Below the pieces are notes generated by a model, which was not told the origin of the DNA, searched no databases, and saw nothing but the letters and a program-made list of their open reading frames with translations. DNA of 64,000 bases from Anaerolineae bacterium. GTDB taxonomy: Bacteria > Chloroflexota > Anaerolineae > Epilineales > JAHCIE01. The stretch lies in NCBI GenBank assembly GCA_034431435.1, contig DAOUDG010000016.1, forward strand, positions 70,574 to 134,573, in the 5' to 3' direction. How positions within the stretch are numbered: the stretch's first letter is position 1; each line of letters starts with the position of its first letter. Both the position numbers and the translations under genes were made by a program. Below, piece after piece: positions 41,127-64,000 of this stretch.

Positions 41127-42155
41127 ATGTCGAAACGCAGCAAGGCCAAGCCGCACGACGCGAACGGCGCGCCCGGCCACACCGACGGCGCAGCGAAGGA
41201 GAAACCTGTCCCCAACGCCGCCGCGTCGCCCCTGACACCCCCTTCAGCAGCGGCATCCTCGCTGCCCGCGTCGCCGCCACCCGCTACTCCGCCCACCCAC
41301 TCGCCTGACACCCGCACCCGGCGCGGCAAGAAGGGCGCGTCCGCCCGCCAGGTCGGCCACGACCCCGACCGCCGCCGGGAGAAGCTCGACAACCGCGCCT
41401 ACGCGCGTGAGCTGGCGCGGCTGCAAGTCGAGCTGGTCAAGCTCCAGGAGTGGGTCAAGTACCAGGGCCTCAGAGTCGTGGTACTCTTTGAGGGCCGCGA
41501 CGCAGCGGGCAAGGGCGGCGCCATCAAGCGCATCACCGAGACCCTCAACCCGCGTTACTGCCGCATCGCCGCCCTACCTGCGCCCACCGACCGCGAGAAG
41601 ACGCAATGGTACTTCCAGCGCTACATCACCCATCTGCCCGCCGCGGGCGAGATGGTTCTCTTCGACCGCAGCTGGTACAACCGCGCCGGGGTCGAGCGGG
41701 TGATGGGCTTCTGCAGCGACGAGGAATACTGGGAGTTCCTGCGCTCGTGTCCAGAGTTCGAGCGGATGCTCATTCGTTCCGGCATCATCCTCATCAAGTA
41801 CTGGTTCTCAGTCAGCGACGAGGAGCAAGAGCGACGCTTCCAGGACCGTATCGATGACCCCACCAAACGCTGGAAGCTCAGCCCGATGGATATGGAGTCG
41901 CGCGCCCGCTGGGTCGAATACTCCAAGGCCAAAGACACCATGTTCGCCTATACTGACACCAAGCAGTCGCCGTGGTTCGTGGTCGACGCCGACGACAAGA
42001 AACGCGCGCGCCTCAACTGCATCGCCCACCTGCTAACCTTGATCCCCTACGAAGACCTGACGCCGCCGCCCCTGGCCCTCCCGCCCCGCCAGCAGGACAA
42101 GGGCTACGTGCGGCCCCCCATCAACGAACAAAGTTGGGTGCCGGACATCCTCTAG
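41127..42155 (+). CDS. ppk2: Polyphosphate kinase 2 (PPK2) with ~100-aa low-complexity N-terminal extension
   Basis: Core has PPK2 Walker A FEGRDAAGKGG and lid region DRSWYNR. The N-terminal 100 aa is Pro/Ala/Ser/Thr-rich. Confidence 0.75.
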   Translation: MSKRSKAKPHDANGAPGHTDGAAKEKPVPNAAASPLTPPSAAASSLPASPPPATPPTHSPDTRTRRGKKGASARQVGHDPDRRREKLDNRAYARELARLQVELVKLQEWVKYQGLRVVVLFEGRDAAGKGGAIKRITETLNPRYCRIAALPAPTDREKTQWYFQRYITHLPAAGEMVLFDRSWYNRAGVERVMGFCSDEEYWEFLRSCPEFERMLIRSGIILIKYWFSVSDEEQERRFQDRIDDPTKRWKLSPMDMESRARWVEYSKAKDTMFAYTDTKQSPWFVVDADDKKRARLNCIAHLLTLIPYEDLTPPPLALPPRQQDKGYVRPPINEQSWVPDIL

Positions 42156-42179
42156 CCTGTCCGGCCCAGGAGCGCCAGC

Positions 42180-44384
42180 ATGGCCCGCAATCGACGCCGC
42201 GACAAGCATAACGGGCGAGAGCCAGAACTCCGAACCGTCGTCGTGTCCCGCAACGGGCGCAAGAAAGACCCACCCGTGCCGTCGGACGCGGCGCGCTACG
42301 TCAACCGTGAGCTGAGTCTCATCGACTTCTCACGGCGCGTGTTGGAGGAGGCCGAGGATACGCGCAACCCGCTGCTGGAGCGGGTCAAGTTTCTCGCCAT
42401 CGTCAGCTCCAACCTGGCCGAAGTCTTCATGGTGCGGGTTGCGGGCCTCAAGCAGCAAATCGAGGCCGGTGTCACCGAGCGCTCGATGGACGGCCTCACG
42501 CCGGCCGAGCAACTCATCGCCGTGCGTGAGGCCGCCTGGCAACTGATGGTCGACACGCGCCGCGCCTACCAGGCGTTGTTGCCCCAGCTCAACGCCGCCG
42601 GCATCCACATTCTCACCTACGCTGAGTTGAATGATGAGCAGCGCGCCGCGGCCGACGCCTATTTCCAGGAAATCGTCTTCCCGGTTCTGACCCCGCTCGC
42701 GAATGATCCCGGCCGCCCCTTTCCTCACATCTCCAACATGAGCCTGAGCCTGGCCATCATGATCCGCGACCAGGCGGGGGTAGAGCGTTTCGCCCGCATC
42801 AAAGTCCCCAACACCCTGCCGCGCCTGCTGGAGGTCCCGGCCGCGGACCCCAGCCCCACCCAACATACCTTCGTGTGGCTGGAGCACGTGATCGCCGCCA
42901 ACATGGGCATCCTCTTCCCCGGTATGGAGGTCGTCGAATCCCACCCCTTCCGCACCACCCGCGATGCCGAGATGGTGATCCAGGAGTTGGAGGCGGAAGA
43001 CCTGTTGGACACCGTGGAGCGTGGCGTCCGCCAGCGGCGCTTCGGCTCGGTAGTTCGCCTCACCATCGAGCCGTTCATGCCGAGCTACATCCGCGAGATT
43101 CTGGTCGAGAACATGGACATCGACCCCGGCGACATCTACACTCTGGATCCGCCGCTGGGCATCAGTGACCTGATGGTGTTGGCCCGCGTCGACCGCCCCG
43201 ACTTGAAATTCAAGCCCTTCACCCCTGCCATCCCGCCGGTCGTCGAGGACGAGGCCGACATCTTCACCGCCATTCGGCAGCAGGACATCATCCTCCATCA
43301 CCCCTACGACTCCTTCGAGCCGGTGGTCGAGCTGATCGACACGGCCGCCCATGACCCCAACGTGCTGGCCATCAAGATGACGCTGTATCGGGTGGGGCGG
43401 AATGCGCCTGTCGTGCGCGCGCTGCTCGATGCGGCGCGCAACGGCAAGCAGGTGGCCGTGCTGGTGGAACTGAAAGCCCGTTTCGACGAGGAGAGCAACA
43501 TCGAGTGGGCAAGGCAACTGGAGAGTGAGGGCGTCCACGTCATCTATGGCCTGGTCGGCCTCAAGACTCACTCGAAGATAGCCCTGGTAGTGCGCAAGGA
43601 AGGCGACCGCCTGCGCCGCTATGTTCACCTCTCGACAGGCAACTACAACGCCGTCAGCGCCCAGCTCTATACCGACCTCGGCCTGCTGACCGACGACGAG
43701 GCGATGGGGGCCGACGCCTCCGACCTGTTCAACTATCTGACCGGTTACTCGGCCAAGCGCGACTATCGCCGCTTCGTCGTCGCCCCTGTCAACATGCGCT
43801 CGCAACTCACCACGCTTATCGAGCGCGAGATTCAGCGCCAGCAGGAGGGCCAGGTCGGGTATCTCATCTTCAAGACCAACTCCCTCGTCGACAAGGATAT
43901 GATCAACCTGCTCTACCGCGCCTCCCAGGCGGGCGTCAAGATCGACCTGCTGGTGCGCGGTATGTGCTCGCTGCGCCCCGGCGTACCCGGTCTCAGCGAC
44001 AACATCCGCATTCTCAGCATCCTGGGCCGCTTTCTGGAGCACAGCCGCATCTACTACTTCAGCAACGGTGGCCAGGAGGAAATCTATCTCGGCAGCGCCG
44101 ACATGCGCACTCGCAACCTCGACCGCCGTGTCGAGATTCTCTTCCCCATTTGCGACGCTGCCAATGTGCGTTACCTGCGCGACGTGGTGTTGGCCGCGTA
44201 TCTGGCAGACACCGCCAAGGTGCGCCTGATGCAGCCCGATGCCACCTACACGCGGCGGCTGCCCGCCCCCGGCGAGGCCGAGTTCAACGCCCAGGAGTGG
44301 TTCATCCAGACCCGCGATTGGCGCGACCACGACACGCTGCCTGCCCCGCCCGTCGCATCGTCGCAGCCTACCTCAACCGGCTAG
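42180..44384 (+). CDS. ppk: Polyphosphate kinase 1
   Basis: 734 aa with PPK1 N, head and two PLD-like C domains. Conserved RYVHLSTGNYN histidine-autophosphorylation region. Confidence 0.85.
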   Translation: MARNRRRDKHNGREPELRTVVVSRNGRKKDPPVPSDAARYVNRELSLIDFSRRVLEEAEDTRNPLLERVKFLAIVSSNLAEVFMVRVAGLKQQIEAGVTERSMDGLTPAEQLIAVREAAWQLMVDTRRAYQALLPQLNAAGIHILTYAELNDEQRAAADAYFQEIVFPVLTPLANDPGRPFPHISNMSLSLAIMIRDQAGVERFARIKVPNTLPRLLEVPAADPSPTQHTFVWLEHVIAANMGILFPGMEVVESHPFRTTRDAEMVIQELEAEDLLDTVERGVRQRRFGSVVRLTIEPFMPSYIREILVENMDIDPGDIYTLDPPLGISDLMVLARVDRPDLKFKPFTPAIPPVVEDEADIFTAIRQQDIILHHPYDSFEPVVELIDTAAHDPNVLAIKMTLYRVGRNAPVVRALLDAARNGKQVAVLVELKARFDEESNIEWARQLESEGVHVIYGLVGLKTHSKIALVVRKEGDRLRRYVHLSTGNYNAVSAQLYTDLGLLTDDEAMGADASDLFNYLTGYSAKRDYRRFVVAPVNMRSQLTTLIEREIQRQQEGQVGYLIFKTNSLVDKDMINLLYRASQAGVKIDLLVRGMCSLRPGVPGLSDNIRILSILGRFLEHSRIYYFSNGGQEEIYLGSADMRTRNLDRRVEILFPICDAANVRYLRDVVLAAYLADTAKVRLMQPDATYTRRLPAPGEAEFNAQEWFIQTRDWRDHDTLPAPPVASSQPTSTG

Positions 44385-49356: not shown

Positions 49357-50307
49357 ATGCCTGAACTACCCGGCGCACTGCGCCTGCAATCCGAGTATCG
49401 CGACTACGTGTGGGGCGGCCGCAAACGGCTGCGGCCCGGCCAGCTGACGGCCGAGGCGTGGGTCGTCTATGAGCGCGACCCTATCGAGGGCGGCCCCCTG
49501 GCGGGGCGAACCCTGGCCGACGTCGCCGCCGAGTACGGCGCGGCGTTGCTCGGCTGCCGCGCCGTCGCCCGCACCGGAACCCGCTTCCCCCTCCTCATCA
49601 AGCTGCTTGACTGCGAGCAGTGGCTTTCCCTCCAGGTGCATCCCAACGACGAGCAGGCGGCGCGGCTGGAGGGTGAGGGCCACTTCGGCAAGACCGAGGC
49701 CTGGCACATCCTGGACGCTGACCCCGGCGCGACGCTCATCGCGGGCGTTCGCCCCGGCACGACCCAGGCCGCCCTGGCGGCGGCGATTCGAGACGGCAGC
49801 GTCATCGACCTGGCCGAATCGCTCGCAGTCAACCCCGGTGACACTGTGGTGATGCGGGCGGGTACGATGCACGCCCTGGGACCGGGCCTGTTCGTCTACG
49901 AAGTCCAGCAGACCTCCGATCTGACCTACCGTGTCTACGACTGGGGCCGACCGCCGACCGCCTCCCGGAGCCTGCACATCGACCAGTCCATCGCCGTCAC
50001 CGACCCGCTGGCGCTCGCCAACGCCACGCCTGCCCCTGACCTGGGCGATGGCGAGGGCGGCGTTCTGTGCCGCACCGAATATTTCACGCTGGCGATGTTG
50101 CAGAGCCAGGGGCGCGCCTGCGACCTGGACACGGCGGGGGAGACCTTCCACGCCCTGACCGTCATCAACGGCGCGGCGCGGCTGATCATCGGTGGCGCGG
50201 AGGTGTGCTCGCTCGGTGAGTACGCCAGCGTCGTCATCCCCGCCGCCACCGGCGCGTATCGGCTCGAACCGGCGCCGACGTTCCGCGCCCTCAAGGCGAG
50301 CCTGTAG
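49357..50307 (+). CDS. manA: Class I mannose-6-phosphate isomerase-like cupin
   Basis: FPLLIKLLDCEQWLSLQVHP matches the type I PMI zinc-ligand region, and GEGHFGKTEAWHIL the second ligand block. Confidence 0.6.
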   Translation: MPELPGALRLQSEYRDYVWGGRKRLRPGQLTAEAWVVYERDPIEGGPLAGRTLADVAAEYGAALLGCRAVARTGTRFPLLIKLLDCEQWLSLQVHPNDEQAARLEGEGHFGKTEAWHILDADPGATLIAGVRPGTTQAALAAAIRDGSVIDLAESLAVNPGDTVVMRAGTMHALGPGLFVYEVQQTSDLTYRVYDWGRPPTASRSLHIDQSIAVTDPLALANATPAPDLGDGEGGVLCRTEYFTLAMLQSQGRACDLDTAGETFHALTVINGAARLIIGGAEVCSLGEYASVVIPAATGAYRLEPAPTFRALKASL

Positions 50308-51744: not shown

Positions 51745-54700
51745 GTGTCGAAGGCGAACACGCATTACCCAAAGCCGCCGCACCGTGTCCGCGAGCTTAC
51801 GCCCAATACGCATACCGTTCAACGCTCGGCGTTGGCCGCCGCTCGCGGGCAGGATGACAGCGGCTCGACCAAAAACCTACGCCACTTCCGTGGGCCAACA
51901 CGCATCCTCTCGCGCTCGGGCGCCCCCGACCGGGGCAATGCCAGCGCCCTCAGCAACCTGCCCCCCCCGGCGATCCCTCTCATTGGCCGCGACCATGAAC
52001 TGGCCGAGCTGCGTGCGCTACTCACCGAGTCGGAGGCGCGTCTCGTTACTCTGACCGGCGCGGCCGGCTGCGGCAAGTCCCGCCTGGCCCTGGAAGTCGC
52101 CGCCTCGGTCATGTCAGCCTATCCTGATGGTGTCTGGTGGGTCGACCTGGCGCACACGCCTGACGCCGACGAGGTTGTGACCCGCATCCGCGCGACGCTT
52201 CAGATGGACGAGGACGCCGACGAGTCCCCCACCGCCGTGCTGTCGCACCTTGAATCGAAGCGCCTCCTGCTCCTTCTCGATGACTGTGAGCCGCTGACGC
52301 GCGCCACGGCGGATGTGATTCACCATATCCTGGCAGCGGCTCGCGCCGTCACCATCCTGGCCACCAGCCGCGAGCCGCTGCGCCTGCCCGACGAGCGAAC
52401 CTGGCACACCCAGGCGCTGGCCGTCCCGACGGCAGCCGAGATCACCACAGGCGTCGATGCCATGCCGCCGGACGACCAGGCCCGCTATGTTGAGAGTCTG
52501 GCCGAGTACGACGCTGTCCGCCTGTTCGTGGCGCGCGCCCAGGCGGCGCGGCCCGGCTTTGCGCTGACGCCCGCGACGGTCAGCCTGGTCGGCGACATCT
52601 GCCGGCAGTTGGAAGGCCGACCGCGCGCCATCCTATTGGCCGCCGAGCGTAGCCGCGTCCTGTCGGTCGTCCAGATTGCCTCGACCCTCGGCGATCTGAT
52701 TCGCCCGCCTCGTCCCCGCGCTCGCCAGGCCGCCAGTGCTGAACAGAGCCTGCGCGCCGGCCTGGAGTGGAGCCACGCCCGACTCAGCCCCCCCGACCAG
52801 CGCGTCTTCCGTAGCCTGGCGGTATTCGAGGGCAGCGCCTCACTGGAAGCCGTCGAGGCCGTCTGCGCGCCCGCTGAGCTATCGACCCTCGAAGTCCTCG
52901 ACAGCCTGGTGGAATTAGTCGATGCCTACTTGCTGCAGGTCGAGAGCCAGTTGGGCGCCGCGCGCTATCGGTTGCCCGTCCTCAGCCGCACCTACGCGGC
53001 CGAGAAGCTCACCGCCGCCGGCGAGGGCGACACGGTGCGCGCGGCCCACGCCGCCTTCTTCGCCTGCCTGGCCGAGGCTGCCCTGCCCCACCTGGACGGC
53101 CCACAGCAGATTCAATGGATGGCGCGGCTTGACCTGGACCGGGACAATCTGCACGCGGCCCTGGCCTGGTCGCTCGAAGTCGGGGATGCCCAGACGGCGC
53201 TGCGGCTGTCGGCCTCGCTGTGGCCCTATTGGCAGGCGCGGGGCGTCAGCGACGAAACACGCCAGTTCCTCGACGCTGCCCTGGCGCTGTCGGGCACGAA
53301 TGTGGCAGAGCTTCACATCCGCACGCTCGACGGCGCGGCGACCCTCGCCTACCTCCAGGGCGACGGCGAGCGCGCCGAAACCCTGCACACGCGCAGCCTG
53401 GCCCTCAAGCGCGAGAGCGGCGATGAGGCCCGGCAGACGCCTTCGCTGTGCGCCCTGGCCGCCCTCAGCATCGACCGGCGCGACTACGAGCGGGCAGAAA
53501 CGCTGTGTCAGGAGGCCCTTAGCCTGAGCCGGGAGCGCCGCGACCGCCGCGCCACGGCCTACGCCCTCCTCCATCTCGGTCGGCTGCGTCATGCCTGCTG
53601 CGACTACCGCGCGGCGACTGCCCTGTTCGACGAGGCCGTCGCAGCCTACCGGGTATTGGGCGACGCGCGGGGGCTGGCTCTGGCCTTGAGCGCGCACGCC
53701 GCCACGGCGAGCGTCCAGGGTCGCCGCGACGAAGCGCGGACGCTCGCTGACGAGGCGCTCGGCTTGCGGCGCGAGCTTCACGACGAGATGGGCATCGCCG
53801 CCTCCCTTGCCGATCTGGGCGCGCTGGCGCGAGACAGCGGCCACCTGGATCACGCCGCCGAGTTGCTGCACGATAGCCTGACGCGCTACCGCCACCTCCG
53901 CGCGCGAGGGGGCGTCGCCCGCGTGCTGGCCGACCTGGCGCTATTGGCTGTCTACCAGGACAACCCTGCCCACGCACGGATGACCTGCGCCGAGAGCCTG
54001 ACCCTCTACGAGGAACTGGGCGCCAGCGACGGCATCGCCACGGCGCTCAGCATCCAGGCGCTCGTCACGCTCCATGACGGCGATAGCCCGCGCGCTCTGG
54101 CCCTGGCCCACAGGGCGCTAGAGATGCGCCGCAGCCAGCGCGATCAGCACGGCATCGCCGAGTGCCTCGACATCGCGGCCGCCATTTACGCCACGACCGG
54201 CCCCCTGGAGCATGCGCCCCGGCTAGAGGGCATCGCCGCCGCCTTGCGCGAGACCATCGGCGCGCCCCGCCCACCGGCCTTCGACGCCGATCTGCGGTGT
54301 CGCCTGTCCCCGGCGGTTTGTGGCCTGGGCGCAGAGCCGTATGAGGCTCTCCGCCACCAGGCGCACAGCGCCCCCTTCGAGGAACTCGACCGGTTGGCGT
54401 GCACGGAGCCGGCGCTCGCGGTTCCCGACCAGCGCGCCACGCGGCCGTCACCTGTCGTGGCGGTGGCCGCGCCGCCAGCCGCCGACTCCGGCCCCGATCT
54501 GCGCGTGCTGGCCCTCGGCCAGAGCAAGGTCTATCGTGACGAGCGACTGCTGTCCACCGCCGACTGGACCTACGCCAAGCCGCGTGAGATGCTTTTCTTC
54601 CTGCTGTCGCACCCACCGCGCACCAAGGAGCAAATCGGCGTGATGCTGTGGCCGGACGCATCGCCCAATCAGCTCCGCGCCGCGCTGCACCCGGCCCTGT

Positions 54701-55257
54701 ATCATCTGCGGCGCACCCTGGGCGACCGCCGGCGCGTCGTGACCCGCCAGGACAGCTACTCGTTCAACCGCGATATCCCCTACTACTTCGATGTTGACGA
54801 GTTTGAGTCCCTCGTGACGCAAGCCCGCCGCTACGCCGAGAAAGCCCCCAACCAGGCAATTGCGGACCTCAAGGCGGCAGTGGCCCTGTATCAGGGTGAC
54901 TTCCTCGCCGACATGACGGTCACCAGTGAGTGGGCGCTCATCCGCCGCGAGGAACTGCGCCAGACCTTCCTGGAGGCCCTGCTCCTGCTCGGGCGATTGC
55001 TCCTCGAGGCGCAACGCTACACAGAAGCGGCGGATATCTATCGGCGCGCCATCGCCCAGGATAGCTACCTGGAGGTCGCTCATCGCGAGTTGATGCGCTG
55101 CTATCAGCTGCAAGGCGAGATCAGTCGCGCCCTCAAGCACTATCAGGGCCTTGTGGAGTACCTCCGCACGGAGATGGCATCGGTCCCCGCGCCCGAGACG
55201 ACGGCCCTTTTCCAGCGCCTGGCCGCCCAGGTTGCGTATACATCTAGCGGCAAATAG
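51745..55257 (+). CDS. Large (~1170-aa) signal-transduction regulator: N-terminal NB-ARC/AAA-type ATPase, central TPR array, C-terminal OmpR-type winged helix + BTAD (SARP domain order inverted)
   Basis: Walker A TGAAGCGKSRLALEV and hhhhD Walker B LLLLLDDCEPL. Many TPR-like repeats (residues 400-800). C-terminal LRVLALGQSKVYRDERLLS...YHLRRTLGD (wHTH) followed by a BTAD helical region. Start (GTG 51745) uncertain. Confidence 0.6.
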   Translation: MSKANTHYPKPPHRVRELTPNTHTVQRSALAAARGQDDSGSTKNLRHFRGPTRILSRSGAPDRGNASALSNLPPPAIPLIGRDHELAELRALLTESEARLVTLTGAAGCGKSRLALEVAASVMSAYPDGVWWVDLAHTPDADEVVTRIRATLQMDEDADESPTAVLSHLESKRLLLLLDDCEPLTRATADVIHHILAAARAVTILATSREPLRLPDERTWHTQALAVPTAAEITTGVDAMPPDDQARYVESLAEYDAVRLFVARAQAARPGFALTPATVSLVGDICRQLEGRPRAILLAAERSRVLSVVQIASTLGDLIRPPRPRARQAASAEQSLRAGLEWSHARLSPPDQRVFRSLAVFEGSASLEAVEAVCAPAELSTLEVLDSLVELVDAYLLQVESQLGAARYRLPVLSRTYAAEKLTAAGEGDTVRAAHAAFFACLAEAALPHLDGPQQIQWMARLDLDRDNLHAALAWSLEVGDAQTALRLSASLWPYWQARGVSDETRQFLDAALALSGTNVAELHIRTLDGAATLAYLQGDGERAETLHTRSLALKRESGDEARQTPSLCALAALSIDRRDYERAETLCQEALSLSRERRDRRATAYALLHLGRLRHACCDYRAATALFDEAVAAYRVLGDARGLALALSAHAATASVQGRRDEARTLADEALGLRRELHDEMGIAASLADLGALARDSGHLDHAAELLHDSLTRYRHLRARGGVARVLADLALLAVYQDNPAHARMTCAESLTLYEELGASDGIATALSIQALVTLHDGDSPRALALAHRALEMRRSQRDQHGIAECLDIAAAIYATTGPLEHAPRLEGIAAALRETIGAPRPPAFDADLRCRLSPAVCGLGAEPYEALRHQAHSAPFEELDRLACTEPALAVPDQRATRPSPVVAVAAPPAADSGPDLRVLALGQSKVYRDERLLSTADWTYAKPREMLFFLLSHPPRTKEQIGVMLWPDASPNQLRAALHPALYHLRRTLGDRRRVVTRQDSYSFNRDIPYYFDVDEFESLVTQARRYAEKAPNQAIADLKAAVALYQGDFLADMTVTSEWALIRREELRQTFLEALLLLGRLLLEAQRYTEAADIYRRAIAQDSYLEVAHRELMRCYQLQGEISRALKHYQGLVEYLRTEMASVPAPETTALFQRLAAQVAYTSSGK

Positions 55258-55273
55258 CCTGGTGGTCGTCCGA

Positions 55274-55384
55274 ATGCAGTATCAGTTACGCAACATGGCT
55301 GTGAAGGCCTACTTCACGACCAAAATTCAAGCAGTTCCACAAGCAGTTCCGCAAGCGGCAGGCATTACACTAAAAATTGAGTAG
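55274..55384 (+). CDS. Putative 36-aa small ORF (MQYQLRNMAVKAYFTTKIQAVPQAVPQAAGITLKIE)
   Basis: Sits in an AT-rich island 17 nt after the regulator stop. Contains a tandem CAAGCAGTTCC repeat, translated as AVPQAVPQ. Coding status unproven. Confidence 0.2.
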   Translation: MQYQLRNMAVKAYFTTKIQAVPQAVPQAAGITLKIE

Positions 55385-55968
55385 ACGGTTCTTGTGTCTA
55401 CCCAGAGGATGACCGCACCAGCGTTGGTGCATACGTTGGGCCAGGACTGCCGGCGGGGGGTCGGTGGTACGCCTGAGTATAGGTGGTCCTGTGGGACACA
55501 AGCCCTCGGTCAATGGCGACCGCGGTCTCCAAATTCGGGATAACGTCGGACTTCACGCACCTCACACTCCCGAGCCTATTCCCCCCTTACCGCTGGCTCC
55601 TGCCCATGTCGGCGTAACTGAGCCTCAGTCGCCTGGTCTTGACGGCACGTCTGGATCGATGCCGTGTTCCGTGTCCTCGTCGGAGCTATCCCGCGCGGGC
55701 AGGGACGCCGGCGTCACGTTGGTCGCTGTTCCCAGCGCCCACAACGAGCGTCGTGCGCTCGCCCATAGGTGGTACGCTCAGTGCGGCATAGTCATGCACG
55801 CATGGGCGGAGCCTACCCGTCGCCCGCGACACTCTGTATATCCTCGGCAGTTCCTGCCCCGTTCGGTCCCCAACCGGCACGGATGGGCGGAGCCTGCCCA
55901 ACGGCCCTAGTCGCCTCTCTCTCCGCCCTGGCCCACAGCATTCCGGTTCCCTTTCACGACTAGCGAGG

Positions 55969-56508
55969 ATGGAAGACCTTATGGCTATGCCTGCTTTCGC
56001 ACCCACCAACTCAGTTGACGTGCCTACCTGGTACGCACTTCACACCAAGCCCCACGCTGAGCAGCAGGTGACGACGGCGTTGCAGGCGCGCGGCTTCGAG
56101 GCCTATCTGCCCACGATTCCCGTCTGGCGCGCCCGGCGCCGCCGAACCGAGGCCGAGCCGTTCTTCGCCTGCTACAGCTTCGTGCGGGTCGCCCTCTCGA
56201 CCGTGGGCCTGTCGGCTATCACCTGGGTCCCCGGCCTCCGCGCAGTCGTCAGCAGCGAGGGTCACCCCATCCCCATCGCCCCGACTGTCATTGACACGAT
56301 CCAGCGCCACCTGGGCGACCTGCCGGTGACCGGGCCGCGCCGCCTGGAGCCTGGCGATCGCGTCGAGATTACCGCTGGCCCGCTGCAAGACCTGGAGGGC
56401 ATCTTCCAGGGCCACCTGTCGAGTGTCGAGCGCGCCCAGGTACTGGTCAACGTTTTGGGGCGAATGACCCGTGTCGAGATTCGGGAGAACTGGCTCAGGA
56501 GGATCTGA
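55969..56508 (+). CDS. Specialised NusG paralog (NGN + KOW; LoaP/UpxY/TaA-like processive antiterminator)
   Basis: NGN motif WYALHTKPHAEQQVTTALQARGFEAYLP, C-terminal KOW (GDRVEITAGPLQDLEGIF). Small (179 aa) and positioned as first gene of a glycan cluster, as for cluster-specific NusG paralogs. Confidence 0.7.
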   Translation: MEDLMAMPAFAPTNSVDVPTWYALHTKPHAEQQVTTALQARGFEAYLPTIPVWRARRRRTEAEPFFACYSFVRVALSTVGLSAITWVPGLRAVVSSEGHPIPIAPTVIDTIQRHLGDLPVTGPRRLEPGDRVEITAGPLQDLEGIFQGHLSSVERAQVLVNVLGRMTRVEIRENWLRRI

Positions 56509-56509
56509 G

Positions 56510-57583
56510 ATGCTCATCGCACGAGCGCCGGTCCGCATCAGCCTCGGCGGTGGCGGAACTGACCTGGCCGCCTACTATCGCCCCTACGGGGGTATGGTCA
56601 TCAGCGCGGCCATCGACAAGTACTTCTATACCTTCATCTCGCGCGGCGCGCAGGACGAGGGGGTGCAGGTCATCTCCTCCGACTATCGAACGTTCTACCG
56701 CCACGACCCGCGCCAGCCCTTCTTCTGGGACGGCAACCTGCAGCTGCCGCGCGCCATCCTGCACCACTTCGGCGTCGAGCGTGAGTACAACGTGTTCCTG
56801 GCGTCCGAAGTCCCGCCCGGCACCGGCCTCGGCTCGTCGGGCAGCGTGGCCGTCACCCTCGTGCGCGCCCTGAGTACCCTGGCCGACATCCCCATGTCGC
56901 GACAGGAAATTGCCGAGACCGCCGCGTACATCGAGGTCGAGAAGATGGGCATGCCGGTCGGTAAGCAAGATCAGTACATCGCCGCCTTCGGCGGCGTAAA
57001 GGTGATCACCTTTAGCGCCGACGGCGTCACCGTCGAGCCGTTGCGCCTCGATGACGCCACGCTGGGACGCCTGGAGAGCCGTCTCATCCTGTTCTTCACC
57101 GGCAGTAGCCGCGAGTCATCCAACATCCTGGAGCATCAGAAGCAGGCAAGCGAGAAGCGTGATCCCGTCGTCATCGACGCCTTGCACACGATCAAGGCGC
57201 TGGCCCACGACATGCGCAGCTTCCTGGAACTGGGCGACCTGGACGGTTTCGGCCAACTGCTGGACGAGTCGTGGCGCGAGAAGAAGAAACTCGCCCCGAA
57301 CGTCTCCTCGTCGGGCATCGACCGCTGGTATGCGCTGGCTCGTCAGCACGGCGCGATTGGCGGCAAGGTGACCGGCGCGGGCGGTGGCGGCTTCCTGATG
57401 CTCTACTGCCCCATCGATCGCCAGGCCGCCGTCACTCAAGCCCTCGAAGCCGATGGCCTCGTTCGCATGAACTTCCGCTTCGACTTCCAGGGCGCAACCG
57501 TCCTCCTAAACACCCTATCACGTACGAACGGAGTCCAGACGCAGCCCTCATGGGCGACGGCGCGTAGCGCCGCCCTCCGATAG
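56510..57583 (+). CDS. GHMP-family sugar kinase, D-glycero-D-manno-heptose 7-phosphate kinase (HddA)-like
   Basis: N-terminal APVRISLGGGGTDL, and GHMP ATP motif PPGTGLGSSGSVAV. ATG 56510 four nt after the NusG-paralog stop, with RBS AGGAGG. Confidence 0.7.
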   Translation: MLIARAPVRISLGGGGTDLAAYYRPYGGMVISAAIDKYFYTFISRGAQDEGVQVISSDYRTFYRHDPRQPFFWDGNLQLPRAILHHFGVEREYNVFLASEVPPGTGLGSSGSVAVTLVRALSTLADIPMSRQEIAETAAYIEVEKMGMPVGKQDQYIAAFGGVKVITFSADGVTVEPLRLDDATLGRLESRLILFFTGSSRESSNILEHQKQASEKRDPVVIDALHTIKALAHDMRSFLELGDLDGFGQLLDESWREKKKLAPNVSSSGIDRWYALARQHGAIGGKVTGAGGGGFLMLYCPIDRQAAVTQALEADGLVRMNFRFDFQGATVLLNTLSRTNGVQTQPSWATARSAALR

Positions 57584-57603
57584 TCCCCCCTAAGGAGGTG
57601 TTC

Positions 57604-58254
57604 GTGAGAGTCGTATTTCTCGATCGCGATGGCGTCATCAACGAGAACCGCCCCGATCACGTCAAGGCGTGGTCAGAGTTCCAGTTCCTGCCGGGTGCGC
57701 TCGACGCTCTGCGTCTCCTGCGCGAGGCGGGCTGGCGGGCCATCGTGGTCACTAACCAGGCCATCATTCACCGCAATGTCGTCCCGCGTGCCACCGTGGA
57801 TGACATCAACCAGCGTATGCGCGAGACCGTCGAGATTCACGGCGGCCGCATCGATGCCGTGATGTGCTGCCCCCACCGGCCTGAAGAGAACTGCGACTGC
57901 CGCAAGCCGCGCCCTGGCCTGCTCCAACAGGCCGCGACCCAATTCAACCTGCCGCTGGACCAGTGCTACATCATCGGCGACGCCTACAGCGACATTCAGG
58001 CCGGTCGCGCCGTCGGCTGCCGCACCATCATGGTGAAGACGGGTCGGGGCTTGCAGCAGATGATGACCGCGCCGCCCTTGTCCCTGCGGCCCCATCAAGT
58101 GGCGAGCGACCTCGCCGACGCCGCCACGTGGATGGTCCGCGCTGAGCGTCGTCGCCTGCTCTTGCGTGTCTCCGACTCGGGCCTGCCCATTGGTGTGCCT
58201 GCCATCACCCCGCCCACCCTCTTTCCGTGGTCAAGCAACTCCGCCTCTACATGA
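57604..58254 (+). CDS. HAD-superfamily D,D-heptose 1,7-bisphosphate phosphatase (GmhB)-like
   Basis: FLDRDGVIN motif I, VVTNQ motif II, and zinc-binding C...H...CDCRKP loop typical of GmhB/HisB-N. GTG 57604 with RBS AAGGAGG. Confidence 0.65.
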
Positions 58255-58970
58255 TGCGGCAGGCGGCCAGCCTGCGCTACTATCTCATCGAACAGACGAT
58301 CATGACGCTCTTCGGGTGGATGCCGACCATCGTCGGCATCGGCCTGCGGAGCGTCGTGTATCGCCTGATTCTGCGCATGGACGGCACGGCCGCCATCGAG
58401 AACGGGGTGCGGCTGCGCTTCGCCAGCAACATCCGCCTGGGCCACGGCGCGTACCTTGACCACGGTGTCTACCTGCACGCCTGCCCCAACGGCATCAGCA
58501 TCGGCCCCAACAGCCTGGTGATGCATGGCTCCGTGCTGCACGTCTACAACTTCCGCCACATGCCCCATTCTGGCATCCACATTGGCCGCGATAGCTTGAT
58601 CGGCGAGTACAACGTGCTGCGCGGCCAGGGTGGCGTCACGATCGGCGATCGGGTCTATACCTCACCGCTCGTCCAGATGCTGGCGGTAAATCACCTCTTC
58701 GACGACCCCACGCGACCCTTCGTCAGTCAAGGCATCACGGCCCAGGGCATCGTGGTGGAGGATGACGTCTGGATTGGCGGCGGCGCCATCATCACCGACG
58801 GCGTGCGCATCGGCCGCGGCTCAGTGGTGGCGGCCGGCGCCGTCGTGACGAAGGATGTGCCGCCTCACACCGTCGTCGCCGGCGTTCCCGCCCGTATCGT
58901 TCGCCATATCGTCGCCAACGGCGCGCAGTCACGCGCCGAGACTGTGTATTACTCTCAGGGGGACGCATGA
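58251..58970 (+). CDS. Left-handed beta-helix (hexapeptide-repeat) acyl/acetyltransferase
   Basis: Repeated [LIV]G-x4 hexapeptides (IGDRVY..., [27 protein letters not shown]). ATG overlaps the stop of the upstream gene (ATGA). Confidence 0.65.
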
Positions 58971-60241
58971 CTGTAGACGCCGCGCTTCGACCCATCGACT
59001 TCGCCCGGCCCGCCGTCGCCGCGCCGCTGCTACCGCCGGTCACGCTGTCGGTGGTGATCCCCGCGCTCAACGAGGAAGACGGCATCGCCGACATCGTCCA
59101 CCGCATCCAGGCCGTCGCGCCTGCCTTGCGCGAGGTGGGCGTCGAGCATCTCGAAGTTATCGTCGTGGACGACGGTTCCACCGACCGGACCGCTGAGATT
59201 GTGCAGAGTATACCCGGCGCGCGCCTGGTCCGCCATCCCGTCAATCGCGGCTATGGTGCGGCCATCAAGACCGGCTTCCTCGCCGCGCATGGCGAGTTGC
59301 TCGCCTTCACCGACGCCGACGGGACGTACCCACCCGAGCGTTTCCCCAGCCTGTGCCAGGCCGCGCTCGTCGATGGGGCGGACGTGGCCGTGGGGTCGCG
59401 CCGCTCTGGGGCCGAGAGTCACATGCCGATGGTGCGGCAGGTGGGCAACTTCATCTGGTCCAACCTGGTCAGCGTCATCGGCAACCAGCGCGTGGCGGAC
59501 CCCGCCAGTGGCATGCGCGTGGTGCGCCGCGACGCGCTGGCGCAGCTGTACCCGCTGCCCGATGGCCTCAACTTTACCCCGGTGATGAGTACGCGCTCGG
59601 TCCACGAGGGCCTCAAGGTGGTCGAGATTCCCATCGCCTACAGCGAGCGCGTCGGTCGCTCCAAGCTCAGCGTGGTCAGGGACGGGACGCGCTTCCTCAA
59701 GACCATTCTCTGGACCTCGCTGGAGTATAACCCAGCGCGCCTGCTGGGCATGGTGGGGCTGGCCTGCCTTGTCGTGGCCGCCATCCTGGCGGCCGGCCTT
59801 GTCGCGCTGCGCGCCCAGGGCGTCACGCAGCTTGGACCGTGGGGCGTGTTCTGCCTGTTCACGGCGATGGTGCTCAGCTTCGTCGGCGTGAGCACGTTCT
59901 CCCTCGGCGCGACCTTCAACTATCTCGTGTCGCTCTTCCGCAAGGAGCCGGTGCGGGTGGGCCTCTTTGGGCGACCCGTCTTCAAGACGCCGCTGGATCG
60001 CCACTTCTGGTGGATGGGGCTACTGGCGGGGGCGTTGGGCGCTGCCCTCGCCGTGGTGGCTCTGGTCCTGGGTCTCCAGGGCTGGGAGATTTCGCGCTCA
60101 TGGTTCTGGATGCTGACCAGCGCTTTCCTGGCGCTGATCGGTTTGCAACTGTTCATCTCGTGGATTCTGATGCGCGTGCTAGAGGCGCTGAGCGAGCGCG
60201 AGGTGCGTATCAGCCAGGAAATGGCCCGCGCCACGCCGTAG
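58967..60241 (+). CDS. GT2 polyprenyl-phosphate glycosyltransferase (DPM1/ArnC/GtrB-like) with C-terminal membrane helices
   Basis: [11 protein letters not shown]...[12 protein letters not shown] and DADG motifs. Four C-terminal TM segments. ATGA overlap with the previous gene. Confidence 0.75.
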
Positions 60242-60280
60242 ACATCGGTCAGCGTTGCGATAGACGATCGAGGAGGGGGC

Positions 60281-61957
60281 ATGGCAGTTACCCACAATGG
60301 CATCAAGCCCGAGGACATCAAGACTCGGGACGAGCTACGTCACAACCTGGGCACGCGCCCTGTCAAAGCGCCGCGTCCGCCCGACTTTCCCGACGCGGGC
60401 GCGGCGGTACGCGACCTGACCCACACGCGGCCCTCGACGGCCGTCGATGTGCTGCTGGTCAATCCCCCGTCCCCCGACGGCGGCATCTGGATTCGCACCC
60501 AGCACCGCGTCGGGCGACGCAGCCGCGAGGAGATGGTGTGGCCACAATGCTCCCTGGCGCAGCACGCCGCGATGCTGCACCCGGAGTACAGCATCGCCAT
60601 CGTCGACTGCATCGCCGAGCGCATGTCGTGGCAGGACTTCGAGACGCTGCTGCGCGAAAAGGCGCCCAAGTACTACTTCACCCAGGTCACCGCGCCCACC
60701 CTGACCAACGACATGTACGGGGTCATGCTCGCCAAGAGCCTGGGCGCGATCACGATGGCCTTTGGCACGCATGTCACCGCCATGCCCACCGAGACGATGC
60801 GCGACTTCCCGGCGCTGGACTTCGTGATTCGCGGCGAGCCGGAGCTGACCTTCCGCGAGCTAATCGACGTCCTCGAAGGCCGCGAGACCGACCGCGCCGA
60901 GTGGGTCCAGGCGATTCTGGAGAAGTCCGATCCGTGGTGGAAGCCCGTCGGCCATCATGGCCCGCAGAACGGAACCCCCATCGACCTGACGAACCTCAAG
61001 GGGCTGGTGTGGCGCAAGGATGGCGTCATCACCATGAACGCCACGCGCCCCTGGATCGCCAACCTGGACGATCTGCCCATTCCCCTCTACCACCTGCTGC
61101 CGCTGGACAAGTACCGTATGCCCTTGATGAAGGGGCCGTTCGTGTTCATGGTCACCAGCCGCGGCTGCACGGCCGGCTGCAAGTACTGCATCAAGCACGT
61201 CACCTACCAGTGGTCGGTGCGCCTGCACTCGCCAGAGCGCATCCTCCAGGAGATGTGGCTACTCCACGACCTGGGCATCCACAACATCCACATCTACGCC
61301 GACCTCTTCACCATCAACCGCGAGCAGGTGGTCCAGCTGTGTCAGCTGATCATCAAGGAGGGATTGAAGGTCAAGTGGACCTGCAATAGCCGCGTCGACT
61401 ACGTGGACGAAGAGATGCTCAAGCTCATGGGCCGTGCGGGCTGCTGGATGATCTCGTGGGGCATCGAAAGCGGTAACGAGGCCATCCTCAAGCGCGCCGC
61501 CAAGGGCGCCGATCCCAAGAAGGCGAAGCAGGCCCTGACCTGGGCGCGGCAGGCCGGCATCAAGAACTGGGGCTACTTCATCATCGGCCTGCCCGGCGAG
61601 ACGGTCGAGACCATCCGCCAGACCATCGACTTTTCCAAGTCGCTGCCGCTGGAACTGGCGCTGTTCCACATTGCCGCCCCCTACCCCGGCACGCCCTTCT
61701 TCTTCGAGGTGGTCGAGAATGGCTGGTTCAAGCCCGGCACCAAGTGGGAGGAAGTCGATATGGACAAGGGCACCGTCCTCCAATACGACAACCTCTCCGC
61801 CGAGGACCTGATGTACTGGCAGAAACAGGCTTTCAAGGAGTGGGCCTTGCGGCCCGGCCCGGCCAAGACCTACGCCAGGATGCTGGTAAGTGATAGCGCC
61901 ACCTTCAAGCGCGCCGTTCGTGTCGGGATGGAACATCTCCAGTGGGTGCTGCGGTAG
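60281..61957 (+). CDS. Cobalamin-binding radical SAM enzyme (class B rSAM)
   Basis: N-terminal B12-binding Rossmann-like domain (VLLVNPPSP...), and rSAM cluster motif CTAGCKYC (CxxxCxxC) within FMVTSRGCTAGCKYCIK. 558 aa. Confidence 0.75.
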   Translation: MAVTHNGIKPEDIKTRDELRHNLGTRPVKAPRPPDFPDAGAAVRDLTHTRPSTAVDVLLVNPPSPDGGIWIRTQHRVGRRSREEMVWPQCSLAQHAAMLHPEYSIAIVDCIAERMSWQDFETLLREKAPKYYFTQVTAPTLTNDMYGVMLAKSLGAITMAFGTHVTAMPTETMRDFPALDFVIRGEPELTFRELIDVLEGRETDRAEWVQAILEKSDPWWKPVGHHGPQNGTPIDLTNLKGLVWRKDGVITMNATRPWIANLDDLPIPLYHLLPLDKYRMPLMKGPFVFMVTSRGCTAGCKYCIKHVTYQWSVRLHSPERILQEMWLLHDLGIHNIHIYADLFTINREQVVQLCQLIIKEGLKVKWTCNSRVDYVDEEMLKLMGRAGCWMISWGIESGNEAILKRAAKGADPKKAKQALTWARQAGIKNWGYFIIGLPGETVETIRQTIDFSKSLPLELALFHIAAPYPGTPFFFEVVENGWFKPGTKWEEVDMDKGTVLQYDNLSAEDLMYWQKQAFKEWALRPGPAKTYARMLVSDSATFKRAVRVGMEHLQWVLR

Positions 61958-61993
61958 CGTTCGGATCGACTTGACTACGGGGGGGGTTCGTGG

Positions 61994-63604
61994 ATGACCG
62001 ATTATACGCCCGACGCACGCGAGAAGGCGCTCGCGTTGCCGTCGTTGCTGCCGCCGCAGCTCCTTGTCCGCGAGCTGGCCTGCTTCGCCGTCGCGTTTGT
62101 CGGCGCTCTTCTCCTCTATGTGCCGTTCCTATCGATTCAGTTCGATGTCAATGGGATCATCGAAGCCCAGGCGGTGGAGCGCGGCGGAACGTTCCTGTTC
62201 TCCCCTAATCGGCTGTTGTATCGAGCCATAGGAGCGCTGGGGTACGAGCTGGCGCTACGGAGTTCCGGCCCATCGTTGCCGCTGTTGCAGTTCCTGAGCG
62301 CGTTCCTGTCGAGCGTAGCCATCGCGGTGTTCTGCGTCGTGGCTTTTCGGCTCACGAAGAGCATGACCGCATCGCTCTGGGCCACGGCCCTGTTGGCGAC
62401 ATCGTGGTCGTTCTGGGCCTACAGCACCGATGCCTATTACATCACCCCGGCCGCGCTGGCCATCTTCTGCGCCCTGGCGCTGCTCATTCCAGCGACGACC
62501 AGCCTGCGAGCAGCCATCGGCGCGGCGGTGTTTGTCAGTGTGGGTATCCTGTTGTGGCAGGCCAACATCTTCGCCATTCCCTTGTGCCTCGGCCTCCTGC
62601 TCTTCTACGCGCCGCGCCGCGCCCGACGCCGACGGCGGACAAACGCTCTGGCCTTCCTGGTGGTCGTCGGCGGCCTGACCGCAGCCAGCTATCTCACCGT
62701 GGCGGTCGCTGTCCATGGCCTCGGTGATGGGAAGGCGCTGCTCGACTGGCTGCTATCCCACGGCAGCGATGAATTCGGTCGCCCGCCGATCTGGGGCGTC
62801 TGGTCCCTCGACCGGGTCCCGGCCGCCGCCGTGGCGGCCATCTCTAGCTGGATTCCCGTGTGGGATGGTCTGGGCTTGAGGAAGTTAGCCCAGGGTCAGT
62901 TCCAGCTGCACAAGCTCGTCCCCCAGCTCTCCCTGGTCTCGCTGGGTATGCTGGCTGCCCTCCTGAGCCACGAGCCTACCCGCTGGAAACCAGCGCGCCC
63001 CGAATGGCGGCGGCTGGGGTGGCTGCTACTGGCCGGCTATCTTCTCTATATGCCCTTCGTGGTGTGGTGGGATCCGGCTCCCAAGTGGTTCGTCATCCCC
63101 AACGCCTTCCTGGTGTTGGGCGCCGCCCTCATGCTGTCCAGGCGCCTGCACCGCAGGAATCCAGGCCCCGTGTTCTTGTACGCCAGCCTGGTCGCCATCG
63201 TCGCGGCGGCCAACTTCACCACCTCCGTGTATCCGCGTCACACCATGTCCGGCCCGGAGATTCCCGTCGCGGAGTGCTTTGTGCAGGCGACCACGCCGCA
63301 GGATGCGCTGGTCCCGCTCGACTGGGCCTGGACGGAGTACGCGACGTATCTGTTTGGCTATCAAGGCAGGATCCTCGGACTCCCGCCGAATCTATCGGCC
63401 GTAGGCCCTATCCGCGCCGCCATCGAGAGCGCTGAGAGGTCCGGCGGCAGTGTGTACGTTGTGGACAGGCGCGACGCCCCGGCCGACGTCAAGCAGCGCA
63501 TCCGTGACACCGGCTATGCGCTCGATGCCGTCCTGGTGTTTGAGCACGAGCCTGCCTTCTCGTGTGGCGACATACACTTTTCGCGGTTACGAGCCACTCC
63601 CTAG
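61994..63604 (+). CDS. Multi-pass membrane protein, candidate GT-C-fold (ArnT/PMT-like) glycosyltransferase
   Basis: About 10-12 hydrophobic segments. Acidic first extracytoplasmic loop (FDVNGIIEAQAVERG). Basic loop PRRARRRRRTN. Large C-terminal soluble domain. The family call is inference. Confidence 0.45.
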   Translation: MTDYTPDAREKALALPSLLPPQLLVRELACFAVAFVGALLLYVPFLSIQFDVNGIIEAQAVERGGTFLFSPNRLLYRAIGALGYELALRSSGPSLPLLQFLSAFLSSVAIAVFCVVAFRLTKSMTASLWATALLATSWSFWAYSTDAYYITPAALAIFCALALLIPATTSLRAAIGAAVFVSVGILLWQANIFAIPLCLGLLLFYAPRRARRRRRTNALAFLVVVGGLTAASYLTVAVAVHGLGDGKALLDWLLSHGSDEFGRPPIWGVWSLDRVPAAAVAAISSWIPVWDGLGLRKLAQGQFQLHKLVPQLSLVSLGMLAALLSHEPTRWKPARPEWRRLGWLLLAGYLLYMPFVVWWDPAPKWFVIPNAFLVLGAALMLSRRLHRRNPGPVFLYASLVAIVAAANFTTSVYPRHTMSGPEIPVAECFVQATTPQDALVPLDWAWTEYATYLFGYQGRILGLPPNLSAVGPIRAAIESAERSGGSVYVVDRRDAPADVKQRIRDTGYALDAVLVFEHEPAFSCGDIHFSRLRATP

Positions 63605-63906
63605 CGCCACTCGCGCCCGGCCCTGAAGTATCCTGGCGCCACCCCCTAGCGCGCCGTCCGTGTCAGCCCGGAACGCCTCCAGCAGGCGCGCCGGGCAGGC
63701 GCGGGCGGGGAGAGCGGGACAGATGCGCGTGAGCCCATTCGTCCCCCCCGGTGGGTTCACATCCCCCTGGACGTCTGTCCCGCACCTCTCCCCTTAGCCC
63801 CCGCCTCATCTGACTTTGCTGCTGGTTCCCGGTCGGTTGCGCCGCGCTGGCTTGACTGGCCCCCAAGACACTCCTGACCCCCGTGAGACCCTGGAGTTAC
63901 GCACTA

Positions 63907-64000
63907 TGGACCTCTCGATCATCGTCCCGTGCTACAACGAAGCCGAGAACACCGACAAGCTGCGGCGCGAACTATTCCCCGTCCTGGCGGAACTGGCGCA
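63907..64000 (+). CDS. GT2 glycosyltransferase, 3' truncated by the window edge
   Basis: MDLSIIVPCYNEAENTDKL is the canonical GT2 N-terminus (DXD-family). Confidence 0.55.

Follow-up and report, generated by a model that had tools for sequence, protein, structure and literature searches.

The window analyzed here is a stretch of 64,000 nucleotides (G+C content, ~67%) from the Anaerolineae bacterium assembly GCA_034431435.1 (phylum Chloroflexota; contig DAOUDG010000016.1, forward-strand positions 70,574 to 134,573). Toward its 3' end, seven + strand genes between positions 55981 and 63604 encode a NusG paralog, two relatives of heptose biosynthesis enzymes, a hexapeptide-repeat O-acetyltransferase (Hex), a family 2 glycosyltransferase (GT2), a class B radical S-adenosylmethionine (SAM) enzyme, and a membrane glycosyltransferase of the GT-C fold (Table 1). 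Searches of the Pfam and NCBIfam families upheld all of the predicted gene calls. The successive genes, from that for the NusG paralog to that for the GT-C protein, are separated by 1, 20, -4, -4, 39, and 36 nucleotides and are expected to form one operon, since the gaps span only -4 to +39 nucleotides. A scan for terminators and promoters in the leader and in the whole extended cluster detected nothing beyond the expectation from shuffled sequences. The cluster runs at least 18 kb past position 64000, as revealed by an identical contig (L001) and by a 97%-identical contig (L094). With slightly better than even confidence, we consider the region to be the 5' half of a cell envelope glycan cluster that extends over 36 kb or more.

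Table 1 Features of the cluster in the window and, for entries preceded by L001 or L094, in the contigs that extend it
Feature	Coordinates	Strand	Basis or remark
STAND-type regulator candidate	51745..55257	+	NB-ARC, TPR repeats, C-terminal BTAD
Long noncoding leader	55258..55980	+	723 nt, repeats
NusG paralog	55981..56508	+	NGN + KOW; first gene of the operon
HddA-type GHMP sugar kinase	56510..57583	+	NF049969; WcbL/HddA structures
GmhB-type HAD-IIIA phosphatase	57604..58254	+	PRK08942; GmhB structures
Hexapeptide-repeat sugar O-acetyltransferase (Hex)	58251..58970	+	Pfam Hexapep; trio member 1
Polyprenyl-phosphate GT2, ArnC/GtrB/DPMS type	58967..60241	+	Glycos_transf_2; trio member 2
Class B (B12-binding-domain) radical SAM enzyme	60281..61957	+	Radical_SAM; trio member 3, best conserved
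GT-C-fold membrane glycosyltransferase, 536 amino acids	61994..63604	+	Fold from structure
Second GT2 (soluble, DPM1/ArnC-like), start only	63906..64000	+	Gene cut by window edge; opens downstream module
Downstream half	L001 11913-21611 (= window 63906 onward), then L094 1-8358		
Soluble DPM1/ArnC-like GT2, 257 amino acids	L001 11913-12686		Glycos_transf_2, 100 bits; translation starts MDLSIIVPCYNEAENT
ArnF/ArnE-like EamA/SMR-like membrane protein, 136 amino acids	L001 12677-13087		ArnF, 55.6 bits versus cutoff of 99
WecB	L001		299 versus curated cutoff of 210, passed
FAD oxidoreductase	L001		PRK07233 type
DMFA2_C-domain protein	L001		
Two paralogous polytopic GT-C-like membrane proteins	L001		One matches PMT_2; the other is 31% identical to the first
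OatA-like acyltransferase	L001		Acyl_transf_3 + SGNH
Additional polytopic membrane protein	L094		
Further PMT_2 GT-C	L094		
GH38-like protein	L094		Twin-arginine (TAT) signal and dockerin

The conserved unit at this locus is the trio formed by the hex, GT2, and radical SAM genes, the heptose genes being accessory. Synteny was analyzed by tblastn searches with all of the proteins of the cluster in the loci of the best 80 relatives of the radical SAM enzyme, 67 of which were informative, as they contained sufficient sequence upstream from the radical SAM gene. Neighboring open reading frames (ORFs) of the related loci were clustered, with annotation of representatives, and preannotated contigs were also compared. 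A gene for an ArnC-type GT2 was located immediately upstream from the radical SAM gene in 63 of the 67 informative loci, a hex gene was present upstream in 57 (Hex identity, 55 to 95%), and the order hex, GT2, and radical SAM was kept in 56. The kinase was found in 15, the phosphatase in 23, and both together in 12, with the NusG paralog also occurring in 23. The best 80 relatives were distributed among Anaerolineae, Ardenticatenales, Promineifilaceae, many Acidobacteriota (Bryobacterales and Vicinamibacterales), and one member of the Acidimicrobiia. The closest species-level genome is the metagenome-assembled genome TGS_CHL1 (locus L007), whose radical SAM enzyme is 96% identical to that of the window. 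Across Chloroflexota, Acidobacteriota, and Acidimicrobiia, identity of the radical SAM enzyme ranged from 61 to 96%, far above what is usual for polysaccharide genes, and family-specific peptide patterns detected its family in the genomes of at least 558 species. The conservation of the trio, combined with this number of species-level genomes, points to a specific and selectively important sugar modification that has not been described. Literature searches for a polysaccharide module combining a GT2, a radical SAM enzyme, and an acetyltransferase returned nothing relevant.

Two types of product were usual for the gene 3' of the radical SAM gene, namely, a Wzy_C protein in 41 loci, in many cases with TPR repeats in the same chain, and a Bac_transf protein of the WbaP type in 23. 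Further neighbors included genes for Wzz/tyrosine kinase, family 4 glycosyltransferase (GT4), PMT_2, and carbamoyltransferase proteins. Since Wzz-, Wzy-, and WbaP-type neighbors recur around it, the trio is a module of surface polysaccharide loci. The order of the kinase, phosphatase, hex, GT2, and radical SAM genes found in the window is repeated in an independent lineage (L092), and a recurrent order in Anaerolineae consists of the NusG paralog, Bac_transf, a short-chain dehydrogenase/reductase (SDR), the kinase, an SIS protein, the phosphatase, Hex, GT2, the radical SAM enzyme, and a Wzy_C-TPR protein. Members of the Acidobacteriota are diderms. The trio is therefore not a specialty of monoderms; a previous interpretation of the window based on its letters only (the sequence-only reading) had placed the cluster in a probable monoderm. 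Downstream of the trio in one Ardenticatenaceae locus (L087, 15534-21175), a fused ATP sulfurylase/adenosine 5'-phosphosulfate kinase and two Phosphodiest proteins of the alkaline phosphatase superfamily are encoded, which hints that the glycan of that lineage is sulfated or phospho-modified.

Each member of the trio was assigned to a protein family. Hex matched Pfam Hexapep with 50.3 bits, and its best NCBIfam matches were Maa, WcaF, and LacA. Its closest solved structures (3ect, Maa, and LacA) align with residues 107 to 229 only, the N-terminal ~100 residues forming a family-specific region. For GT2, the score against Glycos_transf_2 was 110.6 bits, and the best NCBIfam matches were AglJ, a dolichyl-phosphate hexose transferase, and ArnC. 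Residues 23 to 336 align with ArnC structures (E = 1e-24), followed by DPMS (5mlz) and GtrB (5eke), which places the protein in the ArnC/GtrB/DPMS type and supports the polyprenyl-phosphate GT2 of the sequence-only reading. The protein displays the GT-A fold with a DXD-type motif, its translation containing the sequences VVDDGS and TDADG, and four membrane helices are predicted at its C terminus.

The radical SAM enzyme scored 99.6 bits against Pfam Radical_SAM, and its C296-x3-C300-x2-C303 (CX3CX2C) motif is invariant. The Pfam B12-binding score was 24.4 bits versus a cutoff of 32.1, yet this domain is recorded for many of the homologs. According to its modeled fold, the protein is a class B (cobalamin-domain) radical SAM enzyme that may use cobalamin. 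AprD4 was the nearest structure both by sequence and by modeled fold, followed by TsrM, MgmA, OxsB, CysS, and TokK. The nearest curated family was HpnJ (TIGR03471), with 222 bits (E = 1e-65) versus a cutoff of 577.6. An exhaustive search retrieved 6318 representatives at E <= 1e-30, and more than 100 homologs were at least 73% identical. The family itself is compact, its full-length representatives being 59, 48, 46, and 43% identical, and below it lies a large cloud of HpnJ/BchE-like proteins of ~470 amino acids with 33 to 38% identity. The possibility that the latter are true HpnJ proteins was rejected, as they do not reach the curated cutoff. The reaction catalyzed would be a C-methylation, a deoxygenation, or a ring rearrangement, and the choice between these lies beyond what the sequence can tell.

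The membrane protein encoded at 61994-63604 had been left unannotated and was proposed by the sequence-only reading to be a GT-C transferase. Structure alone revealed the GT-C fold, in which the first external loop contains an acidic residue and the C terminus forms a soluble alpha/beta domain (approximately residues 420 to 536). The enzyme presumably transfers a lipid-linked sugar to an extracytoplasmic acceptor. Comparisons by tblastn and blastp in the 80 loci, including the downstream GT-C and Wzy_C proteins, detected no relatives beyond TGS_CHL1, and the gene for the candidate STAND-type regulator likewise recurred in that genome only.

Membership of the kinase and phosphatase in heptose families was maintained in homology searches, and the genes are syntenic in relatives. 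The best NCBIfam match of the kinase was HddA (NF049969; 199 bits versus a cutoff of 600), and its closest solved structures are all heptokinases, namely, WcbL (4usk; E = 4e-55, residues 3 to 324), 3k85, and HddA (4n3o). The equivalents of Arg13 (R13) and Asp163 (D163), which are the catalytic Arg and Asp of WcbL (PMC4691232), are kept. The phosphatase matched the GmhB model PRK08942 marginally (178.2 bits versus a cutoff of 178) and TIGR00213 with 103 versus 149.6 bits, its closest solved structures being GmhB 4pnh, 3l8h, and 3l8e. Its translation contains a DRDG motif and a zinc-loop motif, CPH...CDCRKP, and the protein is presumed from these similarities to be a heptose 1,7-bisphosphate 7-phosphatase. 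A gene for a GmhA-like SIS protein adjoins the kinase gene in 10 related trio loci and is present in an eleventh locus. These loci include that of an Ardenticatenaceae genome, the kinase of which shares 69% identity with the kinase of the window. GmhA is the best match of these SIS proteins (111 to 125 bits versus a cutoff of 209). Because this gene adjoins that of the kinase in relatives, a heptose-1-phosphate branch, as put forward by the sequence-only reading, is a reasonable interpretation of the kinase-phosphatase pair.

The established heptose pathway requires all four enzymes (PMC7705670), and the other two enzymes, which a downstream extension was expected to provide, were not found. 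No homolog of GmhA or of the SIS domain was detected in the window by tblastn or in the ~18 kb downstream by Pfam searches, and the isomerase is absent from the cluster both in the lineage of L001, L007, and L008 and in L092. An HddC-type G-x-G-T-R-L motif was absent from every frame of the window, and no HddC-type or NTP_transferase gene was present among the annotated or clustered genes of the related loci or in the 18 kb downstream. GmhA may be encoded elsewhere in the genome. A type I phosphomannose isomerase gene is located just upstream of the regulator gene (window 49357-50307); it is pure speculation, based on the analogous isomerization of a ketose to a manno-aldose, that its product stands in for the missing GmhA. 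We lean, by a narrow measure, toward the view that the HddA/GmhB-type pair is an accessory feeder producing heptose-1-phosphate for some step in the synthesis of the same glycan.

The position of the NusG paralog at the head of the operon was correctly recognized by the sequence-only reading. The protein matched Pfam NusG (NGN) with 59.8 bits and aligned over its full length with the RfaH and NusG structures. All of its scores were below the curated cutoffs (RfaH, 81.3 versus 144.5 bits; UpxY, 61.4 versus 100; NusG, 52.7 versus 135.7; LoaP, 37.4 versus 125). It is presumed to be an operon-specific processivity or antitermination factor. Reports on UpxY and RfaH indicate that NusG paralogs at the head of polysaccharide operons are established for these proteins (PMC11685472, PMC7819879).

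Searches of Rfam with the leader returned no match, even at permissive E values. An ORF of 148 codons in the leader (55464-55910) was rejected as a coding sequence, as its substitutions relative to TGS_CHL1 were distributed 18/20/19 over the codon positions and it matched no family. A 12-nucleotide tandem repeat, CAAGCAGTTCC[A/G], at 55328-55351 lies just upstream of the AT-rich sequence TAAAAAT, and the two may represent an activator site and a -10 box, respectively. The sequence GGTGGTACGC occurs twice in the leader (55463-55472 and 55768-55777), with 0.15 occurrence expected in the whole window, and both copies are altered in TGS_CHL1. A direct repeat of 30 nucleotides is also present, at 55796-55825 and 55877-55906, 81 nucleotides apart. 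A k-mer search of the upstream sequences of 17 loci containing the NusG paralog identified no 9- to 12-mer common to loci beyond the closest relatives, and the leaders of the window and TGS_CHL1 are 91% identical, which is too close for singling out functional blocks. In contrast to the window, two Acidobacteriota trio loci carry a perfect match (GGCGGTAGCCTG, GGCGGTAGCATG) to the ops consensus for RfaH of E. coli, GGCGGTAGnnTG (L028:4437-4448 and L031:4902-4913, both on the + strand), in each case <90 nucleotides upstream of the start of the NusG paralog gene, with only one other match in 90 loci. A third locus (L033) carries GGCGGCAGCTTG at the equivalent place, around 4395. These elements suggest an RfaH-like mode of action for this group of paralogs, not specifically for the paralog of the window, and ops control outside Proteobacteria.

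The protein encoded upstream of the leader comprises 1170 residues and matched BTAD (91.9 bits; residues 1015 to 1159), NB-ARC (37.9 bits), and TPR_12 (72.2 bits). No Trans_reg_C/OmpR-type or other DNA-binding domain was detected in its N terminus or linker, even at E = 10. Identification of the protein as a SARP was rejected, since a SARP consists of an N-terminal OmpR-type winged helix followed by BTAD. The case for SARP-like control of the cluster is therefore weak, in the absence of a DNA-binding domain and with synteny limited to TGS_CHL1; the gene also lies outside the segment to which the sequence-only reading had ascribed such an activator. The emphasis that was placed there on heptose and on SARP-type control should be toned down.

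Beyond the window, proteins identical to those of the cluster were found on many metagenome contigs. Overall, the extended cluster encodes two polyprenyl-phosphate-type GT2s, three GT-C enzymes identified by fold or Pfam, and two further GT-C-like membrane proteins. It probably builds or decorates a cell wall polymer using several GT-C enzymes. The flippase gene that the sequence-only reading expected downstream has a candidate in the ArnF/ArnE relative encoded just beyond the window, none being present inside it. The downstream set comprising GT2, WecB, and the FAD oxidoreductase looks like a separable three-component module of the N-acetylmannosamine type. These three genes recur jointly in three related loci (L040, L085, and L056), with ArnF-like and/or GT-C genes. 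At the end of L094, an ORF starts whose N terminus resembles, by eye, an ABC-2 (Wzm/TagG) permease, a putative assignment.

The best-supported model, which we favor by a modest margin over even chances, is an antiterminator-headed, three-component-style system for extracytoplasmic glycosylation with a new type of tailoring of the sugar donor. The long operon would be transcribed with the NusG paralog keeping RNA polymerase processive. The ArnC/DPMS-type GT2 would load one sugar on polyprenyl phosphate at the cytoplasmic face of the membrane, and this sugar would be tailored by the Maa/WcaF-type O-acetyltransferase and the class B radical SAM enzyme. Tailoring most likely involves the lipid-linked and still cytoplasmic sugar, because SAM, the reductant, and acetyl-CoA are cytoplasmic. 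A precedent for auxiliary enzymes that tailor a lipid-linked donor exists in three-component systems (PMC11127046). The donor would then be flipped, possibly by the ArnF-like small membrane protein encoded 0.9 kb downstream, and the GT-C enzyme encoded directly after the radical SAM enzyme would transfer the sugar to a polymer or a protein outside the membrane.

Several observations weigh against this model. The GT-C protein has only 9 homologs, and in most related loci, the product of the gene following that of the radical SAM enzyme is not a recognizable GT-C but either a phosphoglycosyl transferase or a protein of the Wzy_C type. The handover from the trio to a GT-C enzyme is therefore either lineage specific or not obligatory. 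A locus on a JGI soil contig (L091, 1-13163; protein labeled Isosphaeraceae by NCBI) contains the GT2 and radical SAM genes without hex, in the neighborhood of genes for PqqD, NTP_transf_5, Transglut_core3, a NusG paralog, an Asn-synthase homolog, a 47-amino-acid ORF, and an ABC transporter. The ArnF-like protein remains under the curated cutoff (55.6 versus 99 bits), and the leader of the window contains neither an exact ops element GGCGGTAGnnTG nor a conserved ops-like element. The tailoring enzymes could also act on a nucleotide sugar, before GT2. Finally, the functions proposed for every gene are deduced from sequence and fold. As a separate observation, the gene set of the soil contig resembles lasso-peptide or HPr-rel-A-type systems.

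Alternative explanations differ from this model in the nature of the sugar and in the fate of the product. The polyprenyl-phosphate-linked sugar might itself be D-glycero-D-manno-heptose, as in the sequence-only reading, which is unlikely in our estimation; heptose-1-phosphate made by the HddA/GmhB-type enzymes would be activated by an unlinked nucleotidyltransferase, loaded by GT2, modified by the radical SAM enzyme and Hex, and installed by the GT-C enzyme. The translational coupling of the kinase and phosphatase genes to the trio in the window and in L092, the family membership of their products with intact catalytic residues, and the GmhA-like gene beside the kinase gene in 10 related loci argue for this scheme. 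Most of the trio loci contain no heptose gene within 10 kb, however, the kinase being present in only 15 of 67, the cluster of this lineage contains no GmhA, and neither the HddC-type motif in the window nor such a gene in annotated relatives was found. We know of no polyprenyl-phosphate-heptose donor. Since most copies of the trio have no heptose genes nearby, nothing ties the polyprenyl-linked sugar to heptose.

It is improbable that the trio instead produces an end product membrane glycolipid, by analogy with HpnI/HpnJ and with archaeal calditol synthase, in which case the radical SAM enzyme would rearrange a lipid-linked hexose to a cyclitol-type head group. HpnJ and Cds have been proposed to contract lipid-linked sugars (PMC13459092), HpnJ is the curated family nearest to the radical SAM enzyme (222 bits; E = 1e-65), and the position of the GT2 gene beside the radical SAM gene parallels that of HpnI-HpnJ. 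These similarities are countered by a score far under the HpnJ cutoff, which the closest relatives of ~470 amino acids do not reach either, by the closest solved structure being a sugar diol dehydratase (AprD4), by the absence of hopanoid genes from the window and the related loci, and by a neighborhood devoted to Wzz/Wzy/WbaP/GT-C polysaccharide assembly. A secondary metabolite cluster for a heptose-containing or aminoglycoside-like compound, with pathway-specific control by a BTAD protein and antitermination by a LoaP-like factor, has very little to recommend it. Heptose genes do occur in some antibiotic pathways, a BTAD/NB-ARC/TPR protein is encoded upstream, and AprD4, an aminoglycoside enzyme, is the nearest structure of the radical SAM enzyme. 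No DNA-binding domain was detected in this regulator, the synteny of which does not extend past TGS_CHL1, LoaP provided the weakest of the NusG family matches, and the extended cluster specifies two GT2s, a flippase-like protein, GT-C enzymes, and an OatA-like O-acetyltransferase. Scaffold-forming enzymes are absent, and the relatives are located in Wzz/Wzy loci. We rejected the resemblance to a natural product cluster, also perceived by the sequence-only reading, on this context of surface polysaccharide genes (Wzz, Wzy_C, Bac_transf, and GT4).

We propose tentatively, as a rather doubtful interpretation, that the trio is a widespread unrecognized pathway in which class B radical SAM chemistry at C-H bonds (C-methylation, deoxygenation, or ring contraction) is applied to a polyprenyl-phosphate-linked sugar. 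If so, tailoring by a radical SAM enzyme would be seen for the first time with a lipid-linked glycosyl donor, and GT-C- or Wzy-type enzymes would install a previously unseen sugar in the envelope glycans of soil and wastewater phyla, including Chloroflexota and Acidobacteriota. Both of these phyla are abundant in soils and wastewater treatment, yet, to our knowledge, hardly any work has addressed their envelope glycans. For radical SAM enzymology, the trio would offer a target of three genes whose class of substrate can be predicted and, for glycobiology, a marker for a new flavor of extracytoplasmic glycosylation. The acidobacterial ops elements beside the NusG paralog gene would extend RfaH-type control well outside Proteobacteria.

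Other glycan genes are present at a distance in the window, including a pair for a GT4 and a WbaP-type Bac_transf phosphoglycosyl transferase (34144-36797) and a pair for an SDR epimerase/dehydratase and a GT4 (20279-22439). Either pair could provide the initiator of the polymer decorated by the cluster. The window also contains an ORF of 1232 amino acids (15225-18923), for which no Pfam family is recorded and which corresponds to a 1222-amino-acid gene on the matching contig. Genes for the polyphosphate kinases PPK2 and PPK1 are located side by side (41127-44384), in agreement with a polyphosphate-handling lifestyle, because related contigs come from wastewater-type metagenomes.

Comparison with known systems identified both shared and distinctive features. 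The kinase of the window aligns over its full length with WcbL/HddA and has the same catalytic Arg and Asp (PMC4691232). With respect to the heptose pathway, the kinase and phosphatase genes of relatives are accompanied by genes for an SDR and a GmhA-like isomerase, whereas the cluster of the window lineage contains no isomerase. Like UpxY (PMC11685472), the paralog of the cluster is encoded at the head of a long operon of polysaccharide genes and is preceded by a leader of considerable length. No UpxZ-like partner is encoded after the NusG paralog of the window. HpnJ and AprD4 share the class B architecture of the radical SAM enzyme, and both act on sugars, which for HpnJ are lipid linked. 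AprD4, an aminoglycoside 1,2-diol dehydratase, displays ~20% identity with the enzyme of the cluster in structural alignment, and HpnJ, the radical SAM enzyme for the hopanoid cyclitol ether, is found in a different genomic context.

The three-component systems (GtrA/GtrB/Gtr*, ArnC/ArnEF/ArnT, GacI/K/L, and the Citrobacter pentofuranose systems [PMC11127046]) have the ArnC/GtrB-type GT2 in common with the cluster. Their GT-C-fold transferase also has a counterpart in the cluster, and their small membrane protein has a candidate counterpart in the ArnF/ArnE-like protein encoded nearby. ArnD is an auxiliary enzyme that diversifies the lipid-linked sugar. Epimerases have the same role in other three-component systems (PMC11127046). 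In the cluster, by contrast, the auxiliary role would fall to a hexapeptide acetyltransferase and to a radical SAM enzyme of class B. The genes for these two enzymes are fixed on either side of that of GT2, and both enzymes are far better conserved than the GT-C enzyme of the same cluster. No three-component system with a radical SAM partner was encountered in the literature searches. With several GT-C-like proteins and two GT2s, the extended cluster is nearer to the assembly of mycobacterial arabinan and mannan than to the addition of a single side chain.

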